In this document: piece by piece, positions 2,790 to 63,247 of the stretch
Numbering within the stretch: the first letter of the stretch is position 1
Layout: the number at the start of each line of letters is the position of its first letter
DNA from: Rhodothermales bacterium
GTDB taxonomy: Bacteria; Bacteroidota; Rhodothermia; Rhodothermales; VXPQ01
Length of the DNA: 64,000 nucleotides
Reading direction: 5' to 3'
Assembly (NCBI GenBank): GCA_965232485.1
Contig: OZ246975.1
Location: forward strand, 739,196 to 803,195
Translations under genes and position numbers: made by a program
The notes under the pieces: model-generated
The model's input: only the letters and a program-made list of their open reading frames with translations
What the model was told of the DNA's origin: nothing
Databases searched by the model: none

Positions 2790-5129
2790 TTATTCGACCC
2801 CGTTTGTACGCTCGTCCGCCGGCATAACCTGTCCCGAACTTCCGCCCCCTTCCTGCGAATCGCCGCCCTGCAACAATTCCTCGACAATGCGATCCGCCCC
2901 GTACATATGCTCCAGCGCCTCCAGAATGCCCCGGGCGTCAACCGACACGGCGCGGCCCCGTTCGTCCAGGTATACATACGTGTTTTGCAATGCATCGATA
3001 TTGCTGTCGAACGCCACGCCCACGACCCGCAGGTTCTTGTCGAGCAGCGGCGATCCGGAATTGCCGCCGGTAATATCGTTTGTGGTAACCAGATTCACGG
3101 GCGTGGATCGATCCAGCGAATCAGGCGGAGCGAGCCACCGGTCCGGCAAATCCCAATCGGTGTCTTTGCCGCCGTACGAATAATAATGATCGTACATCCC
3201 GAACAAGGTGGTGTGGGACGGCGCCATCGTACCATTATAAGGATAGTCCGCCACAACGCCATCTGCAATGCGAAGCGAAAACGTCGCATCCGGGGGAATC
3301 TCCGCGCCGTATAATGCGAACCGGGCCAGCGACAACAAGGCGCCCAGTTCCTCCTCCCTGCTTTCCAGACCGGATATCTGCTGCTGTATGGACAAAAACA
3401 GGGGCGTCACGACCCGCGCCAGCGCTTCCGCCGGATCTCCGCTGCCCAGAAAACCCTCTTCCAGCAACACCGCATACCGGGCGGAATCCCCCAACGCGGT
3501 GTCGGACACGATCCGATCGGCGGCCTTTTCAGGCGTTTGTCCCTGCAACAAACGATTCACCGTCGGATCATTTTCGCCGAGATACCGCAAAAATTCGCGC
3601 AGACGCACGGCAAGCATGCGCTTCTCCAGCTCCGGGGGCCAATTTTCTATGCCCAGCGCATCCTCCAGCACCTCTTCGATTTCGTCTGGCGGCATGCCCC
3701 GTTGCCGCATCAGGCTGATCACATACCCATACGCGGCCCGCACCAACACATGCGAATCGAACGCCGGCGAACCAAAAAACAGAAAGGCCCGGTTCTGATC
3801 CGCCATGGCTTCCCTGGAACGCTGCAAACGGGCAATCTCGCTGATCGCATGGCCATATTTTTCCTCAAGGGAATCCACGGCGGCAATGGCGGAGACCAAG
3901 TCTCTTTCCGCCGTCATTCGCCGCGCAATCAGCAGCGAATCACGCAATCCGGCCAGTTCTCCTTCATGCTTTTTGAACTGATTCGAAATCTGGAGCCAGT
4001 CGTTGCGCAGGTCGTATTCCCGGGCCGACCCCTCTGCCTCGGCGATATATTCTTCCAGAATCCGCATCCGGTCCCGTAGCGCGTCAAGCGTGGCGGGCAA
4101 CATATAATCCCGCTCGAATTCCAGTTGCCCAACCGTCGCCAAACGGCTCGTGGAGCCCGGATTGCCCACCACGAAAACGGCCTCGCCTTCCTGCGCTCCG
4201 TCCTTGTCCCATGCAAAATAATTCGGCGTACGCAGCGGCTCGCCCTCCGCATCCCAGGCCCGAAAAAAACTGAAATCGAAACTGTAGCGGGGATACGTGA
4301 AATTATCCGGATCGCCGCCGAAGGCGCCAATCAGCAACTCCGGCGCAAACACCAGCCGAATATCGTCGTAGCGCCGGAACGTATAGGCCGAATACCGCCC
4401 GCCGTAGTACAGTTCGACCACCTGCACGGTCAACAGCGAATCCCGGGCTTTCGCCTCGGCGTCCATGCGTTCCTCCATGCGCTCCATCCTTCTATTTCGC
4501 CCCGCCGCCGAAAGGTCCCGCCGCTCCATATCCCGGCTTGCGCGGCCCGGTCGCCTGCGGGATTCGGGCAAGGCGGCGTCCACAAACGGAACTCGCCCGT
4601 AGACCTCATCCGTAATATCCCGGATTTCCACCAGTTGCTCCGCATAGAGTCCTTCCACCTTGCGCTCCGCCCCAAGCGAATCGGCGTAAAATCCCTCATC
4701 CAGCAAGGCCTCGCCCTCTCGGGTCACCTCCGTAACGCTTTCCCGCGCGCAATGGTGGTTCGTAAGAATAAGTCCGTTCGGCGACACGAACGAGGCCGAA
4801 CAATTCGGAAGCCGCAACGCGCCCAAACGCGCCTGCGCGAACCAGGCGGAATCCGGCCTGAATCCATAGGCCTCCTCGAAATAGTCCACCGGCGGGTCCT
4901 CGAACGTCCACATTTTTCCCGTATCGAATCGCCCCACCTCGACCCGGGACGGCGCGGCGAGCGAACGAGCGGCGGGCGACTCCACCGAAAAAACGTCCGT
5001 TACGGGCGCCTGCTCGGTCGGACCGGGACGCTCCACAACGGATACGACCTGGCTGCTGCCGCTGCATCCCGCCCAGGCCAGCAAGAGCAGCAGAACGGCG
5101 GCGCGCTTTCGGGGAGATTTCATGCGCAT
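2790..5129 (-). CDS. S46 family peptidase (DPP7/DPP11-like dipeptidyl-peptidase), lipoprotein
   Basis: Catalytic motifs TNHHCA (His) and GGNSGSP (Ser) and overall S46 architecture. Start moved to the ATG at 5129 (MRMKSPRKRAAVLLLLLAWAGC lipobox) within ORF 2790..5189. Confidence 0.9.
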   Translation of the reverse strand: MRMKSPRKRAAVLLLLLAWAGCSGSSQVVSVVERPGPTEQAPVTDVFSVESPAARSLAAPSRVEVGRFDTGKMWTFEDPPVDYFEEAYGFRPDSAWFAQARLGALRLPNCSASFVSPNGLILTNHHCARESVTEVTREGEALLDEGFYADSLGAERKVEGLYAEQLVEIRDITDEVYGRVPFVDAALPESRRRPGRASRDMERRDLSAAGRNRRMERMEERMDAEAKARDSLLTVQVVELYYGGRYSAYTFRRYDDIRLVFAPELLIGAFGGDPDNFTYPRYSFDFSFFRAWDAEGEPLRTPNYFAWDKDGAQEGEAVFVVGNPGSTSRLATVGQLEFERDYMLPATLDALRDRMRILEEYIAEAEGSAREYDLRNDWLQISNQFKKHEGELAGLRDSLLIARRMTAERDLVSAIAAVDSLEEKYGHAISEIARLQRSREAMADQNRAFLFFGSPAFDSHVLVRAAYGYVISLMRQRGMPPDEIEEVLEDALGIENWPPELEKRMLAVRLREFLRYLGENDPTVNRLLQGQTPEKAADRIVSDTALGDSARYAVLLEEGFLGSGDPAEALARVVTPLFLSIQQQISGLESREEELGALLSLARFALYGAEIPPDATFSLRIADGVVADYPYNGTMAPSHTTLFGMYDHYYSYGGKDTDWDLPDRWLAPPDSLDRSTPVNLVTTNDITGGNSGSPLLDKNLRVVGVAFDSNIDALQNTYVYLDERGRAVSVDARGILEALEHMYGADRIVEELLQGGDSQEGGGSSGQVMPADERTNGVE

Positions 5130-7641: not shown

Positions 7642-7725
7642 GCGAAAGTGGCGGAACTGGCAGACGCGCCAGATTTAGGATCTGGTGGGGTAACACCCTT
7701 GGGGGTTCGAGTCCCCCCTTTCGCA
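7642..7725 (+). tRNA. tRNA-Leu (anticodon TAG)
   Basis: Cloverleaf read by eye: acceptor GCGAAAG/CTTTCGC plus discriminator A, D arm GCGGAACTGGCAGACGC, anticodon stem CCAGA/TCTGG with loop TTTAGGA, long variable arm TGGGGTAACACCCTT, T arm GGGGG-TTCGAGT-CCCCC. CCA is not encoded. Confidence 0.9.
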
Positions 7726-8831: not shown

Positions 8832-8890
8832 GGACGCTCTGATCAAAACCGCTTCGCTCAGCATGTCACGTTCGCGCGCAAAGGATATCG
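8832..8890. repeat. truncated copy (one end) of the TTAA-MITE family
   Basis: GGACGCTCTGATCAAAACCGCTTCGCTCAGCATGTCACGTTCGC... aligns with the end GGATGCTCTGATCAAGTCCACTTCGCTCAGCGCATCACGTTCGC of the full copy at 32644. A further solo terminus, GGATACTCTGAAC, lies at 8721-8733. Confidence 0.7.
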
Positions 8891-8958
8891 TGCTTGCACA
8901 AGCCGCGCATCCCGCTGCTTCGCCGCGCCGCGCAGGCCCGCACCCGGGTCCGCGCCGC

Positions 8959-11746: not shown

Positions 11747-11768
11747 GGATACTTCAATCAGAGCGTCC
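11747..11768. repeat. 22-bp terminal-repeat-only remnant of the IS/MITE family, flanked by TTAA/TTAA
   Basis: TTAA(11743-46) GGATACTTCAATCAGAGCGTCC TTAA(11769-72). The tips GGATAC... and ...ATCAGAGCGTCC are the family termini. Confidence 0.7.
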
Positions 11769-12514: not shown

Positions 12515-12587
12515 CCCCCTCGGGAGGATTCGAACCTCCGACCAACGGTTTAGGAAACCGGCGCTCTATCCCCTGAGCTACGAGGGG
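12515..12587 (-). tRNA. tRNA-Arg (anticodon CCT)
   Basis: The reverse complement folds as acceptor CCCCTCG/CGAGGGG plus G, D arm GCTC-AGGGGATA-GAGC, anticodon arm CCGGT-TTCCTAA-ACCGT (one C-T mismatch at the stem base) and T arm GGAGG-TTCGAAT-CCTCC. Confidence 0.85.
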
Positions 12588-17521: not shown

Positions 17522-17938
<417 letters not shown>

Positions 17939-17951
17939 GAAATGCGCTTGA

Positions 17952-17986
17952 GGATACGCTGATTAAGCCCATACAGATCAGCGGCC
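17952..17986. repeat. degenerate terminal-repeat-only remnant of the IS/MITE family
   Basis: GGATACGCTGATTAAGCCC ATAC AGATCAGCGGCC, beginning 14 nt after the rnpB 3' end. The left tip matches the family terminus and the right tip is eroded. Confidence 0.5.
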
Positions 17987-18028
17987 GCGCGGCGCGCGCC
18001 GGCAAGGAATGACGAAGCAGCGTATCCC

Positions 18029-20917: not shown

Positions 20918-22063
20918 ATGACAAAACGAGTCCCTTCGGCACACGTTCCGACAAACGCGGCGCACCGCCGCGCCTTCCGGAAAAATCTGCTTGCCTGGTA
21001 CGACGCCAACCGCCGGGATATGCCGTGGCGGAATAGCTCCGACCCGTACCGCATCTGGTTGTCCGAAGTCATGCTCCAGCAGACCCGCGTGGATCAGGCG
21101 GAGCCGTACTACCGACGATTCACGGAGCGTTTTCCGACCGTCGAGCGGCTGGCCGCCGCGTCCCTCGACGACGTGCTGGCGTGCTGGGAAGGTCTCGGCT
21201 ACTATTCCCGCGCCCGCAATCTGCACAAGGCGGCCCGCCGCATCGTCGAGGCGTTCGGCGGACGCCTTCCCGATGAGGAACAGGCCATCCGTTCCCTTCC
21301 CGGCGTCGGACCGTACACTGCAGCCGCCGTCCTGTCGATCGCCTACGGGCAAGCCCTTCCCGCCCTTGACGGAAACGCCGTCCGGGTGCTGACGCGGGTA
21401 TTCCGAATCGGCGAGGACGCCACGCGCGCGGCGACGCGCAAGCGCTTGCAAACCCTTGCCGCGCAACTCATAGAGCCGACGCGTCCGGGCGCGTTCAATC
21501 AGGCCGTCATGGAACTGGGAGCGAATGTGTGCAAGCCCGCCGCGCCCCAATGCAAAACCTGTCCCCTGCGCTCCGTCTGCGCCGCCGCCGATCAGGGAGA
21601 TCCGGCGGCGTACCCCGTGACGCCGCCTCGCAAAAAGACGCCCCATGTCGATGTAGCGGCGGCCATCGTGTTCGACGAAGCCGGACGCCTGCTGGTATGC
21701 AAACGCCCCGAGGAGGCCATGCTGGGCGGGTTGTGGGAATTTCCCGGCGGCAGGCGAAAACCTGGCGAAATGCTGGAGGCTGCGTGTCGGCGCGCCGTGC
21801 GGGAAAAATGGCGCGTGGACATCGAGACGCACGGCCTGGCGCACCGGATTGCCCATGCGTATACCCATTTCCGCATCACGCTGCACGCTTTTCCGGCAAC
21901 CATTGCGGCGGGCGCCCCCCGGGCGCCCGCGGGTCGGGCCTTCATGTGGGCAGACCGGGCCGAATTGCAAACCTTGGCGTTTTCCAGAACGGGACGCTTG
22001 CTCATCGAGTACGTTTTCAGGGATGCTCCGATCAAAACCACTTCGCTCAGCGCGTCGCGTTAA
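20918..22063 (+). CDS. mutY: A/G-specific adenine glycosylase MutY
   Basis: Start at the ATG at 20918. LLAWYDANRRDMPWR, SEVMLQQTRV, GLGYYSRARNLH, a 4Fe-4S Cys cluster (CKPAAPQCKTCPLRSVC) and a C-terminal NUDIX-like domain. The last 14 codons and the stop lie inside a MITE copy. Confidence 0.92.
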   Translation: MTKRVPSAHVPTNAAHRRAFRKNLLAWYDANRRDMPWRNSSDPYRIWLSEVMLQQTRVDQAEPYYRRFTERFPTVERLAAASLDDVLACWEGLGYYSRARNLHKAARRIVEAFGGRLPDEEQAIRSLPGVGPYTAAAVLSIAYGQALPALDGNAVRVLTRVFRIGEDATRAATRKRLQTLAAQLIEPTRPGAFNQAVMELGANVCKPAAPQCKTCPLRSVCAAADQGDPAAYPVTPPRKKTPHVDVAAAIVFDEAGRLLVCKRPEEAMLGGLWEFPGGRRKPGEMLEAACRRAVREKWRVDIETHGLAHRIAHAYTHFRITLHAFPATIAAGAPRAPAGRAFMWADRAELQTLAFSRTGRLLIEYVFRDAPIKTTSLSASR

Positions 22064-22175
22064 CGGGTGCGAGACATCATCGCTCCATCGTTGAAATCAG
22101 GGAGAAACACGGTGGATTCGCGGCGTTGCAGACGTGACGCGCCCTTCCGAAGGTTGCGAGGGATACGCTGACCAA
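22021..22175. mobile_element. truncated TTAA-MITE copy overlapping the 3' end of mutY
   Basis: GGATGCTCCGATCAAAACCACTTCGCTCAGCGCGTCGCG...CATCGTTGAAATCAGGGAGAAACACGG...GACGTGACGCGCCC... is colinear with 32644-32800 of the full copy. The far end is missing. Confidence 0.8.
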
Positions 22176-24384: not shown

Positions 24385-24488
24385 GCTCGGGGTCTGCCGC
24401 ACTGCTTCGCCATTCCTTGCCGGCGCGCCCCTTTCAGTCCCTGAATCTTTGCGGACTTAATCAAAGCATCCTTAATCAGCGTATTCCT
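24385..24488. repeat. TTAA-MITE end fragment plus the tip of a second (outer) copy
   Basis: ...GGGTCTGCCGCACTGCTTCGCCATTCCTTGCC...CTGAATCTTTGCGGACTTAATCAAAGCATCC TTAA TCAGCGTATTCC has the same arrangement as 32821-32913. Coordinates +/-1. Confidence 0.7.
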
Positions 24489-26685: not shown

Positions 26686-26744
26686 GCGGCCGCAAGCCCG
26701 GAGGGCTTCTTCGCAAGGCTCCTTGCGGCGCGCGCCGCTCAGCC

Positions 26745-26776
26745 CATGGGCTTTGCGGGCTTGATTCAGCGCATCC
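26745..26776. repeat. TTAA-MITE end fragment abutting the glmM stop codon
   Basis: GGGCTTTGCGGGCTTGATTCAGCGCATCC compared with the canonical GAGCTTTGCGGACTTGATCAGAGCATCC. It is followed by TTCA, whose TCA (26778-80) is the glmM stop. Confidence 0.6.
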
Positions 26777-28175: not shown

Positions 28176-29346
28176 GGATACTCTGATCAATCCGGTGTTT
28201 GGGGGTCAGATTGAAGGCATTGAAGGTTTCGATGCGTACAGGGAGCGATTTTTGGTCGAATCCAACGTTAAATCGTCGATATTGTCGTGTTTTTGCGCCC
28301 CGGGCGCCTCAAAACGGGGCGCTCGGGCATACCTATCGGGCGACAGCTATCAATTTCTTGCGCGCCATGTAGAAATTCGCCAGCGCAAACAGCGTATAGA
28401 CCTGCGCCGCGTTCTTGCGCAACCCCCGGTAGCGCGTCTTGCGGTAACCCCAAAGATGCTTGACCACCCCGAAGGGATGTTCTACGCGCGCGCGAATGCG
28501 GTTGCTCTTGCGATTGAACGAAGCGTCCGCGCAGGTCAGTTTCCTGCCTCTGGCCGCCTTGCGCAACACCCGCCAGGCGACGCCTTGCGACTCGGCCTGC
28601 TCCTTGCGCTTTCGGCACGCGTAGCCCTTGTCGCCGTAAATCTCCTTCTCCTCGCCGTGCAGACACTGCTCCATCATCGTCACGTCGTGCACGTTCGCAG
28701 CCGTCACCTCTACGCTGTGCACATAGCCCTGCGTGTCCGTGCCGATATGCGCTTTCATCCCGAAACGCCACTTGTTCGCCTTGCGAGTGGACTTCATCTC
28801 AGGATCGCGCGCGCCGGTGCGGTTCTTCGTAGACGCAGGAGCAGAAATGATCGTCGCGTCCACTATGCTGCCCTCGCGAACCATGACGCCGTGAGCACGA
28901 AGATGCTTGTTGCTAATCGACAGAAGCCTCTTCGTCAGCCCGCGCTCCTCGAGCCAGTGGCGAAACTTGCATATCGTCGTCTCGTCCGGCGCGTAGCCCG
29001 CGTCAAGACGAGCGAAACGACGCATCGCGATATTGTCGTGAAGAGCGTCTTCCATGCCCGGATCCGAATGACCGAACCACTGCTGCATGAAGTAGATACG
29101 AAGCATCGTTTCAAAACCGACCGGAGGACGACCCCTTGCTCCCTGCGGATAGAAAGGCTCCAACTCCGAAAGAAAAGCCTCCCATGGAAGCACCGAGTCC
29201 ATCTGCTCGAGAAATCGCTGGTTACGCGTCTTTTTCGTGCGGCTTTGGTAGGCTACGTCCTCGAATGAAAACTGGAGCATCGGATTTCCTCGATTGGTAA
29301 TGGGATATACCGTAAAATACAAACGGGGGATTAAATCAGAGTATCC
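28176..29346. mobile_element. IS5-family insertion sequence, intact, 1171 bp, TTAA target duplication
   Basis: Terminal inverted repeats GGATACTCTGATCAATCC (28176-) and GGATTAAATCAGAGTATCC (-29346). TTAA at 28172-75 and 29347-50. A single DDE transposase ORF inside. Confidence 0.9.
28333..29280 (-). CDS. IS5-family DDE transposase
   Basis: MLQFSFEDVAYQSRTKKTRNQRFLEQMD..., DATIISAP..., YGDKGY..., RARVEHPFGVVK (DDE with a conserved E region). Start taken at MLQF (29280); the ORF track extends to 29322. Confidence 0.92.
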   Translation of the reverse strand: MLQFSFEDVAYQSRTKKTRNQRFLEQMDSVLPWEAFLSELEPFYPQGARGRPPVGFETMLRIYFMQQWFGHSDPGMEDALHDNIAMRRFARLDAGYAPDETTICKFRHWLEERGLTKRLLSISNKHLRAHGVMVREGSIVDATIISAPASTKNRTGARDPEMKSTRKANKWRFGMKAHIGTDTQGYVHSVEVTAANVHDVTMMEQCLHGEEKEIYGDKGYACRKRKEQAESQGVAWRVLRKAARGRKLTCADASFNRKSNRIRARVEHPFGVVKHLWGYRKTRYRGLRKNAAQVYTLFALANFYMARKKLIAVAR

Positions 29347-30430: not shown

Positions 30431-30467
30431 GGATGCTTTGATCAAGTCCGCTTTGATCAGCGCATCC
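30431..30467. repeat. 37-bp mini element made only of the two terminal repeats, TTAA-flanked
   Basis: TTAA(30427-30) GGATGCTTTGATCAAGTCC GC TTTGATCAGCGCATCC TTAA(30468-71). Confidence 0.8.
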
Positions 30468-32588: not shown

Positions 32589-32913
32589 CGCAGCATGTCG
32601 CGCTTCACGCGTGAAATCGAAGCGCCAATCAAAGTGGACTTAAGGATGCTCTGATCAAGTCCACTTCGCTCAGCGCATCACGTTCGCACGTACGGAACAT
32701 CATGATTGCATCGTTGAAATCAATGGAAAACGCTACGGATTCGGGGCGTTGCGTACGTGACGCGCGCTTCGGGAGGCTGCGAGGCGCACGCTGGCTGTGT
32801 CATTCCTCATTATGTGGGGCCTGCCACATTGCTTCGTCATTCCTTGCCAGCGCACCCCTCGCAAATCTCTGAGCTTTGCGGACTTGATCAGAGCATCCTT
32901 AATCAGCGTATCC
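32589..32913. mobile_element. composite: full-length 255-bp TTAA-MITE (32644-32898) nested in the terminal repeat of an older copy
   Basis: ...ACGCGTGAAATCGAAGCGCCAATCAAAGTGGAC TTAA [GGATGCTCTGATCAAGTCC...GGACTTGATCAGAGCATCC] TTAA TCAGCGTATCC. The outer halves rejoin to a canonical terminus GGAC-TTAA-TCAGCGTATCC. Confidence 0.85.
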
Positions 32914-32921
32914 CATAGAAT

Positions 32922-33713
32922 ATGAATGCAAGTCCCAAACTGCATGCCGTGCCCGCGCTCTGGCGACGGGAACTGGTCAAATTCTTGCGGGACCGGAACC
33001 GGGTAGCCGGGGCCGTACTGCAACCGGTCGCCATCTGGTTGCTGCTGGGATTCGGATTTCGGGATTCCTTCCGTTTGCCGGACGCAACGGGCATGGACTT
33101 GCCCTACCTCGAATTTCTGTTTCCGGGGATGATGGCGATCGTAGCGCTTTTCACGGCCATCTTCTCGACCATTTCTATTGTGGAAGAGCGAGATAGCGGT
33201 TTCCTGCAGGCGGCGCTCGCCACCCCGGCGCGACGATGGTCCCTTGTGCTGGGTCCGGCGCTGGGCAGCGTCACGCTGGCCGTGGGACAAGGCGCCTTGT
33301 TTTTCCTGCTGATTCCCCTGACGGGCCATGCGCCGGGCTGGGTCGGCGTCACACTGATGGCCGGAATTCTGGCGGCGGTGGCCCTCGGATTCACCGGCCT
33401 GGGCGTCGTGATTGCCTGGCGGAGCCGGACTACGCGGGGCTTCCACGCCGTCATGAACCTCTGCCTGATTCCCCTGTGGGTGTTGTCGGGGGCGTTCTTT
33501 CCCGCCGAGGGCGCTCCAGGCGCGCTGCAATGGGCCATCCGGCTGAACCCGGTTTCGTACGGGGTGGATGCGCTGCGAACCGCCATGTACTGGCCGCAGG
33601 AACCGCCCATCGGGGTTTTTCCGTTCGCCCTTTCGCTGGCCGTAACCGGACTGTTCGCGGCGGCCATGTTCTTTTGGGCGGCGCGCTCGGCGGGCAGGCC
33701 TATTCGTCCGTAA
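32922..33713 (+). CDS. ABC-2 type transporter permease
   Basis: 263 aa, six TM segments. The N-terminus ...ALWRRELVKFLRDRNRVAGAVLQP is typical of ABC-2 permeases. Partner of the upstream ATPase. Confidence 0.85.
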   Translation: MNASPKLHAVPALWRRELVKFLRDRNRVAGAVLQPVAIWLLLGFGFRDSFRLPDATGMDLPYLEFLFPGMMAIVALFTAIFSTISIVEERDSGFLQAALATPARRWSLVLGPALGSVTLAVGQGALFFLLIPLTGHAPGWVGVTLMAGILAAVALGFTGLGVVIAWRSRTTRGFHAVMNLCLIPLWVLSGAFFPAEGAPGALQWAIRLNPVSYGVDALRTAMYWPQEPPIGVFPFALSLAVTGLFAAAMFFWAARSAGRPIRP

Positions 33714-58556: not shown

Positions 58557-58978
58557 GGATGCTCTGATTAAGGAAGCTCTGATTAAGTCCGCAAAGATTC
58601 AGAGGCTGACAGGCGTGCGCTGGCAAGGAATGACGAAGAAGCGTGGCAGGCCCCACGTAATGAGGAATGACACAGCCAGCGTGCGCCTGTCAGCCTCCCG
58701 AAGGGCGCTTCACGACCGCGACAACCCGAATCCGCCGTGTTTTTCGCTGATTTCAACGATGCAAGCATGTCCTTTTGTACGCGTGAAAGTGAAGCGCTGA
58801 TCAAAGTGGAGTTAATCAGAGCTTCCTTAAGTCCGCAAAGATTCAGAGGCCGAAGAGCGCTTCACGACCGCGACGACCCGAAGCCGCCGTGTTTTTCGCT
58901 GATTTCGACGACGCCATCATATCGTTCTGTACGCGTGAACGTGAAGCGCTGATCGAAGTGGACTTGATCAGAGCATCC
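58557..58978. mobile_element. composite: full-length 255-bp TTAA-MITE (58572-58826) nested in the terminal repeat of an internally deleted older copy
   Basis: TGAA GGATGCTCTGA TTAA [GGAAGCTCTGATTAAGTCC...GGAGTTAATCAGAGCTTCC] TTAA GTCCGCAAAGATTCAGAGG...GGACTTGATCAGAGCATCC TGAA. Confidence 0.88.
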
Positions 58979-63189: not shown

Positions 63190-63247
63190 GTTGTGGACTC
63201 ATTCCCGGCGCACCGCCGACCGAACGCTCACCGCTGCTCGCTGCGAC

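Follow-up and report, generated by a model that had tools for sequence, protein, structure and literature searches.

A family of miniature inverted-repeat transposable elements with IS5-type termini and a conserved, strand-asymmetric hairpin in sponge-associated Rhodothermales

Introduction

[quoted passage not shown] The insertion sequence (IS) IS5 of Escherichia coli follows the target rule YTAR. In Porphyromonas gingivalis, the MITEs BrickBuilt, MITE293, MITE700 and 464/PgRS have terminal repeats in common with the IS5-family ISPg elements (PMC4596501). Here a family of MITEs is described from a stretch of 64,000 nucleotides of contig OZ246975.1 (positions 739,196 to 803,195), below called the window, which holds two full-length copies of 255 bp, a set of fragments and one IS5-group IS with matching ends. 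The 255-bp repeat is, with a probability that we put at roughly 85%, a real miniature transposon that uses the ends, and almost certainly the enzyme, of an IS5-type element.

The IS5-linked MITEs of P. gingivalis are the closest described cases. Both those and the Rhodothermales family are small and non-coding, have termini that are identical or nearly identical to those of a resident IS5-family IS to which they have no other similarity, are nested in other mobile elements and live in a host of the FCB group. Their sequences are unrelated, however, and BrickBuilt has internal tandem repeats and irregular duplications, whereas the Rhodothermales elements regularly duplicate 4 bp at T-W-A-A and contain two modules closed by hairpins, with a core that covaries and is strand-asymmetric. 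The Correia elements are the nearest analogy in their abundance, their size variants by internal deletion and their hairpins, but differ from the present family in the TA duplication and the different 26-nt repeat; here the duplicated target spans 4 bp and the ends are those of the IS5 group. Compared with IS5 of E. coli (~1.2 kb), the IS in the window is of similar length (1171 bp), also has a single DUF772 + DDE_Tnp_1 transposase and a 4-bp duplication, and its TTAA target fits YTAR, but the terminal repeat sequence is another one and the targets TGTA, TAAA, TATA and CATG found here fall outside YTAR. Repetitive extragenic palindromic sequences (REPs) are without IS-type terminal repeats and target duplications and are linked to RAYT tyrosine transposases (PMC2817692). 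Like REP, BIME and REPIN sequences the Rhodothermales repeats are extragenic, highly structured and abundant; unlike them they have IS-type termini and 4-bp duplications (RAYT genes were not searched for).

The family thus described has the features of a bacterial MITE: small size without a transposase gene, inverted termini, a duplication of fixed 4-bp length, dispersed copies and an intact empty site, together with termini held in common with an autonomous IS, the putative source of transposase (16-17 of 19 positions, with the same asymmetry and the same target-site duplication). The family itself, from sponge-associated Rhodothermales, is new and undescribed, while the type of element to which it belongs is well known. 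No description of this family, or of any MITE in Rhodothermales, was found in the literature, and the main text of a large survey of prokaryotic MITEs mentions neither IS5 nor Rhodothermales nor sponges.

Results and Discussion

Full-length copies and their termini

A sequence-only reading of the window had described a 255-bp element with 19-nt inverted termini between two TTAA, and a second 255-bp copy in the opposite orientation, both of which were confirmed. The termini of copy 1, which lies in the orientation of the family profile, are perfect, with GGATGCTCTGATCAAGTCC at 32644-32662 and its exact reverse complement at 32880-32898. Copy 1 sits in the terminal TTAA of an older truncated MITE end, and when it is excised in silico the flanks GTGGACTTAA and TTAATCAGCGTATCC join to a MITE terminus. 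Copy 2 is 83% identical to copy 1 and is likewise nested, in its case within the terminus of another copy, an outer 163-bp variant. The 19-nt terminus, with up to three mismatches, has 12 matches in the window against 0.05 expected from shuffles, and across the family 98.6% of the cells of the terminal helix are paired. The further copies and fragments that had been listed were recovered either with nhmmer, using a family profile built from full-length copies, or, for the short remnants, by direct reading (Table 1). The family accounts for a dozen odd repeats and several spurious open reading frames (ORFs) in the annotation of the window.

Table 1. Elements of the MITE family, the IS5-group IS and their parts in the window
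Feature	Position	Strand	Basis and remarks
Small terminus remnant	8721-33		direct reading
Left-end fragment, profile positions 1-67	8832..8898	+	nhmmer E=1.4e-11
22-bp terminus-to-terminus mini remnant, TTAA-flanked	11747..11768	.	direct reading
Right-end fragment, profile positions 183-254	17952..18023	-	nhmmer
Left half, profile positions 1-152	22021..22172	+	nhmmer
Small terminus remnant	22914-50		direct reading
Right-end fragment (24389-24471) whose insertion point is the TTAA of a further terminus remnant (24472-24487)	24389..24487	+	nhmmer and direct reading
Degenerate right-end fragment	26719..26776	+	nhmmer E=0.003; absent from L098
IS5-group IS, 1171 bp, with TTAA duplications at 28172-75 and 29347-50	28176..29346	-	sequence reading
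Transposase gene, 315 aa from ATG	28333..29280	-	Pfam DUF772 + DDE_Tnp_1; NCBIfam NF033581
37-bp mini-element, left end nt 1-33 + ATCC, TTAA-flanked	30431..30467	.	direct reading; nhmmer 30431-30466
Small terminus remnant	31474-87		direct reading
Older truncated MITE end, last 11 nt resume at 32903-32913	32591..32643	-	nhmmer, profile positions 12-64
Left TTAA target-site duplication of copy 1	32640..32643	.	sequence reading
Full-length MITE copy 1, perfect 19-nt termini	32644..32898	+	nhmmer E=1e-79, profile positions 1-254; sequence reading
Hairpin module (H) of copy 1: covarying basal stem, GCTGGC/GCCAGC stem, two invariant GGAAUGAC purine loops, apical stem-loop	32772..32867	-	alignment, folds
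Right TTAA target-site duplication of copy 1	32899..32902	.	sequence reading
Outer 163-bp hairpin-less variant, first 15 nt (terminus including TTAA), interrupted by copy 2	58557..58571	-	orthologous in L019
Full-length MITE copy 2, flanked by TTAA at 58568-71 and 58827-30	58572..58826	-	nhmmer E=2.5e-81
Hairpin module (H) of copy 2, on the H strand	58602..58698	+	pairing count, family covariation
Outer 163-bp hairpin-less variant, rest; first 4 nt are the duplicated TTAA	58827..58978	-	nhmmer 58850-58978, profile positions 1-129, E=8e-36; aligned to L019

Empty sites and target duplications

The mobility of the element is demonstrated directly by an exact empty site and by further differences in presence and absence between related genomes. 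In the locus of OX638293.1 that is orthologous to the surroundings of copy 2 (L019; the loci compared carry L numbers), positions 1853-1870 read GGATGCTCTGATTAAGTCCGC where the window has TTAA, the 255 bp and a second TTAA. The orthologous region runs on without interruption as GTGAA GGATGCTCTGATTAAGTCCGCAAAG, whereas the window sequence is broken after the TTAA and resumes with the second one. This empty site is a single TTAA and lies inside the terminus of the older 163-bp copy, which is common to L019 and the window. The same old copy holds a 187-bp insertion in L019 and none in the window, and copies at 3535-3788 and 6718-6789 of L019 are missing from the window. An empty site for copy 1 was sought through an exact look-up of the protein of the flanking gene at 32922-33713, which is not on record.

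In all, 307 profile hits were collected, including 104 full-length copies at 89 distinct sites, and target duplications were assessed at 84 independent full-length insertion sites, with the next-outward 4 bp and shuffled partners as controls. The flanking 4 bp were identical at 28 of the 84 sites, against 6.1 expected from shuffled partners and 1/84 for the next-outward 4 bp, and three of the four positions matched at another 29 of the 84. The mobile-element reading thus withstood the search for further copies with target duplications as it did that for empty sites. TTAA, the target that the sequence-only reading had named, held as the preferred one but not as the only one: the perfect duplications were TTAA (7), TAAA (6), TATA (3), TGTA (2), CATG (2) and others found once each, and the position-specific composition of the targets is T-W-A-A. 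One variant of the terminus, GATTAAG, itself contains TTAA, and the copies are for this reason repeatedly nested in each other's ends, as at 32640, 58568 and 24472 of the window and also at locus L005.

At L019 3527-3796 a full-length copy is flanked by inverted, not direct, repeats, GCACTACA before and TGTAGTGC after the MITE; this copy is missing from the orthologous site in the window, and the inserted segment may include extra palindromic flanks. Where L019 has a 72-bp MITE fragment, the window reads GTGGACTCATT at 63192-63204, which resembles the subterminal GTGGACTT of the MITE and may be either what is left of a degenerated copy or a footprint of excision.

The IS5-group insertion sequence

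An IS with matching ends and a TTAA duplication had also been noted in the window, correctly. Its termini are GGATACTCTGATCAATCC and GGATACTCTGATTTAATCC, with TTAA on either side, and its one ORF encodes a transposase that scores 332 bits with NF033581 (IS5 family transposase; cut-off 140), 106 bits with PF01609, 74 bits with PF05598 and ~458 bits against an IS5 InsH-type protein, typical relatives being ~60% identical. With family models above cut-off, a length of ~1.2 kb, a single ORF, terminal repeats and a 4-bp duplication, the element belongs to the IS5 group. A second contig carries the identical transposase protein in other surroundings; the IS there is 99.8% identical over 1171 bp and has the same termini with TGTA on both flanks. 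Relatives with 90-94% nucleotide identity on three other contigs have kept the termini, and the two complete ones are TTAA-flanked. The four other copies, all in unrelated contexts, therefore do not have the unrelated termini that would have made the match in the window coincidental. TTAA is the target-site duplication in three copies of the IS and TGTA in one; TGTA also occurs as a duplication of the MITE. The IS at 28176-29346 is intact and, to judge from the 99.8% identical copy, recently active. These copies of the IS (90-99.8% nucleotide identity; L101, L208, L209 and L210) have flanks of 51-64% GC with unrelated genes, a pattern that points to recent horizontal transfer among different organisms that share one habitat.

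The ends of the IS are asymmetric, with GATT (GATTTAA) at the side of the 5' end of the transposase gene and GATC (GATCAA) at the other, and the ends of the MITE mirror this asymmetry with GATTAAG and GATCAAG. The ends of the resident IS match those of the MITE at 16-17 of 19 positions. On these grounds the MITEs would be non-coding passengers with IS5-group terminal inverted repeats that are moved in trans by such a DDE transposase. The enzyme would recognise the ~19-bp termini and join the element to a staggered 4-bp cut at T-W-A-A, preferably TTAA, and a cut of that stagger would yield the 4-bp duplication; the mechanism is presumably the usual cut- or copy-and-paste of DDE enzymes.

Modules, size classes and coding capacity

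The alignment of the full-length copies shows two modules, a variable one of ~90 nt that is closed by a conserved 9-10-bp stem (GCGCTTCAC / GTGAAGCGC), and a conserved long hairpin of ~95 nt. The main size class of ~255 bp (84 occurrences; 243-268 bp) contains both modules, and its subfamilies differ in length by 1-2 nt. The variable module is lost in a class of 187 bp, found at at least 6 sites with a similar junction, and the hairpin in a class of ~163 bp, with several junctions, one of them common to two sites. Both modules are lost in several copies of 57 bp, in a minimal form of 37 bp and in the rare 22-bp form that runs from terminus to terminus. As forms that lack one module or the other turn up at different sites, neither of the two can be essential for movement. 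The 37-bp elements occur at at least 11 distinct sites, each with 4-bp flanking repeats and one of them in the window; other examples are L059 1310-1346, L061 4976-5012, L071 3205-3241, L075 6912-6948 and L192 3347-3383. If they transpose as such, they would be mobile units of an exceptionally small size; alternatively, they may be produced in place through deletion at microhomologies. With an exact empty site, nesting in a terminus that itself contains TTAA and a modular series from 255 bp to 37 bp, the family is a natural data set for the diversification of MITEs.

In 77 of 89 copies, the strand opposite to the better-folding strand of the hairpin (H strand, see below) has one or two frames without a stop codon, the plus strand at 32644-32898 being an example. 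These open frames are probably due to the pyrimidine-rich composition, in agreement with the earlier view that ORFs crossing the element derive from the repeat. A long ORF spans a copy in a single case (L015), and this ORF resembles a shadow frame. A coding function or an in-frame 'RPE-like' insertion was considered and rejected in view of the 1-2-base length differences between subfamilies, the two open frames in the largest subfamily, the compensating stems and the shadow-frame ORF.

The conserved hairpin and its strand asymmetry

Full-length copies had been said to carry a long internal hairpin in which 58602-58624 pairs with 58675-58697, and the count of 21 Watson-Crick and 2 G-T pairs proved exact. 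The copies used for the analysis of conservation were selected through their termini, the hairpin being no criterion of selection. Diversity in the plus-orientation alignment of these copies drops from 0.25 for the variable module to 0.12 for the hairpin; an H-strand alignment of 31 copies gives values of 0.03 and 0.07 for the two internal loops, as against 0.19-0.25 for the stems that flank them. The named structure pairs in 95.6% of the cells, as opposed to 33-42% when the partners are slid, and both partners have changed in 16 pairs, where shuffles give 8.4±1.6 (0/500 reach the observed value). Each of the two loops contains GGAAUGAC, and in antiparallel arrangement they could pair as a helix of 11 bp that contains three tandem G·A/A·G motifs. 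These motifs are invariant in 29-31 of the 31 copies, and the helix is possible on one strand only. In the alignment it would join columns 56-66 with 97-107 (~58627-58637 with ~58661-58671 in the window), and the G·A motifs would be of the sheared type.

The consensus folds at -76.5 kcal/mol on the H strand, which reads from the GATT end, and at -40.2 kcal/mol on the other strand. The polarity of the H strand is that of the transposase sense strand in the IS. The fold z-scores of copy 1 are -7.0 for the plus and -9.4 for the minus strand, the minus strand being the H strand there. Helix positions with a transition mismatch showed G·U, as read on the H strand, far more often than A·C. This was recounted in a strand-neutral way, with skipped and extended positions added, over 89 independent copies: pair-states common to at least 3 copies gave 23 G·U against 6 A·C (p=0.002), and those seen in a single copy 24 against 17 (not significant). 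Private changes are mostly decay after insertion and are symmetric, as expected for double-stranded DNA, whereas the inherited changes are asymmetric; on the simplest reading, the constraint lies on the propagating lineages and not on the resting copies. It seems, as far as the pattern of substitutions can tell, that a constraint on the one-strand structure acts on those lineages that make new copies. The pattern of conservation suggests selection for this structure in the propagating lineages, and such a constraint is unexpected for an element that is moved as double-stranded DNA by a DDE transposase; the hairpin is the one feature of the family beyond the ordinary. No significant bias of orientation was found relative to local GC skew or to the majority gene strand. 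Searched against Rfam, the complete window at gathering thresholds yielded no family that covers the element, and the element itself at E up to 10 nothing but noise.

Competing explanations of the element and of its hairpin

The 19-nt termini identical to IS5-group ends, the 4-bp duplications and the exact empty site with a single TTAA leave next to no room for the view that the repeats are REP/REPIN-type palindromes spread through single-stranded DNA by a tyrosine (RAYT/HUH) transposase. That view would fit the strand-specific single-strand structure and the extragenic location, but REPs make no duplications (PMC2817692) and no RAYT was seen, though RAYT genes were not searched for; by its duplications and IS-type termini the family effectively refutes it. 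More weight is due to the idea that the family is a MITE which is moved by another IS5-group element, elsewhere in the genome or lost, with termini of exactly GGATGCTCTGATYAAGTCC, which we nevertheless consider unlikely. The exact 19-nt MITE terminus is found beside transposases 42-62% identical to that of the window in metagenome-assembled genomes (MAGs) of Gammaproteobacteria, Calditrichaceae and Bdellovibrionota, the resident IS differs at position 5 and is one base short near positions 16-17, and the homogeneous 253-bp subfamily of OZ220686.1 points to a recent burst while the IS is in none of the sampled blocks. To this can be opposed that some MITE subfamilies carry GGATACTCTGAT like the IS, that IS and MITE have in common the length of the duplication, the targets TTAA and TGTA and the GATT/GATC asymmetry, that the resident IS has the 99.8% identical copy elsewhere, and that the other genomes are known from small samples only.

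Trans-mobilisation by the resident transposase, the hypothesis of the sequence-only reading, thus stands in its matching termini, target spectrum and end asymmetry; where it falls short is the exactness of the ends, which agree at 16-17 of 19 positions as opposed to 19/19 in other phyla. What weighs against it, besides the 2-3 of 19 positions at which the termini of the resident IS differ from the commonest MITE terminus and the IS5-group elements of the three other groups that match it completely, is that neither ~1.5 Mb of Rhodothermales sequence with MITEs from outside the window (8-kb samples around MITEs) nor the MITE-bearing sponge-metagenome loci sampled yielded a transposase homologue. 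Beyond the termini, local alignments of the IS and the MITE score as shuffles do, and alignment searches found no similarity of the MITE to the transposase; the MITE is therefore not a simple deletion derivative of the resident IS, an origin that was rejected as the two have nothing but the termini in common. Trans-mobilisation by the transposase of the resident IS is, on the evidence of ends and targets, well supported, if inferred. Our conclusion is that the family is moved by a transposase of this IS5-group clade, for which the resident IS would be the most likely source in the genome of the window.

For the hairpin, a reading without any function is a serious possibility, though short of even odds: recent ancestry from few master copies, palindrome-driven correction and strand-biased mutation in the masters would together produce the internal conservation. 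The subfamilies are few and very homogeneous (diversity 0.01-0.10 within OZ220686.1), the singletons are strand-symmetric, and template switching at quasi-palindromes is well established as a cause of changes that look compensatory. It is less easily reconciled with the diverse group formed by the OX genomes and the window, in which the variable module differs by ~25%, with the 31-copy alignment of all subfamilies, in which the loops differ by 3-7% and the stems by 19-25% with compensation, with the excess of 23 G·U over 6 A·C on one strand, since palindrome correction gives Watson-Crick pairs, and with the loops, which are not correctable in this way, being the most conserved part. A host-level functional RNA riding in the MITE, concerned with processing, stability or protein binding when co-transcribed, as proposed for Correia, ERIC and REP elements, and kept by host selection, is in our view rather improbable; the sequence-only reading had likened the element, as RNA, to REP/BIME/ERIC-type elements. 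The covarying stems with invariant loops, the strand-specific structure with three possible tandem G·A motifs on one strand only and the position of the copies between genes or at gene ends are what it would predict, but the private mutations of resting copies are strand-symmetric, so that individual copies seem to be in neutral decay, the favoured strand runs antisense to the adjacent genes more often than sense (32 vs 16), there is neither an Rfam match nor a promoter or terminator consensus, and hairpin-less and hairpin-only derivatives coexist.

A constraint that leaves the resting copies unaffected argues against a host function for each copy and fits an effect on propagation, exerted by a transcript or by DNA in single-stranded form. 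On our best, if speculative, reading, a single-stranded form of one strand would improve the propagation of the MITE. The ~95-nt hairpin might even be a strand-specific RNA or single-stranded DNA cofactor, acting in cis or in trans, that promotes DDE-type propagation; this further proposal is a doubtful one. If true, a non-autonomous element of the IS5 type would have acquired a structured cofactor that is selected at the level of the element, not of the host. Selection on the hairpin has its own counterweights. The helices were first derived on the favoured strand, a bias in the count of G·U vs A·C that the strand-neutral recount reduces; the copies are related, so that cell counts overstate the independent events, the number of which is modest; part of the signal could be imitated by quasi-palindrome correction and by mutation with a strand bias in a master copy that lived long; in tandem gene contexts the H strand is found as antisense 32 times and as sense 16 times, a weak bias (p=0.03); and scans for promoter and terminator consensus sequences around both full copies gave nothing above shuffles.

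Distribution of the family

A scan for the exact terminus, with one genome per species, gave at least 100 loci, most of them in the Rhodothermales MAGs OZ220686.1, OX638293.1 and OX638295.1 and in contigs of JAJECT01, JANQSQ01 and CAZSNF01, and among the matches listed similarity beyond the terminus was limited to those Rhodothermales loci. OZ220686.1 carries the very homogeneous 253-bp subfamily. The invariant 21-mer of the internal hairpin was found in one metagenome scan at 106 loci, all from the assemblies LXNI and LXNJ, which are the Sarcotragus foetidus and Petrosia ficiformis sponge metagenomes (PMC5099237). Both metagenomes with the MITE are from Mediterranean sponges. No copy of the element was present in the viral contigs and plasmids scanned. 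In the scans made, the family was accordingly seen solely in Rhodothermales MAGs and in two Mediterranean sponge metagenomes. Synteny at 77-93% identity links the window to OX638293.1, to OX638295.1 and to a contig from a sponge metagenome, and the window thus comes from a related, probably sponge-associated, Rhodothermales genome. The family marks a clade of uncultivated, sponge-associated Rhodothermales.

Two small elements with the identical 19-nt terminus are unrelated to the family, one of 307 bp in a Gammaproteobacteria MAG (L007 1937-2243) and one of 121 bp in a Granulicella MAG (L056 3213-3333). Their ends suggest that this clade of the IS5 group has given rise to MITEs repeatedly.

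Fragments and neighbouring genes in the window

The left-half fragment at 22021-22172 is missing at the orthologous site in L098 and L185, the latter a contig from a sponge metagenome. Its combination with the right-end fragment at 24389-24471 into one split or composite MITE was rejected, as the intervening genes are syntenic in L098, which lacks the left fragment. The right-end fragment at 17952-18023 (72 bp) is missing at the orthologous site in L185 and lies 14 nt downstream of the RNase P RNA gene (bacterial class A, 248 bits), which occupies 17527-17937 on the plus strand. Two tRNA genes are found in the window, at 7642-7725 on the plus and at 12515-12587 on the minus strand.

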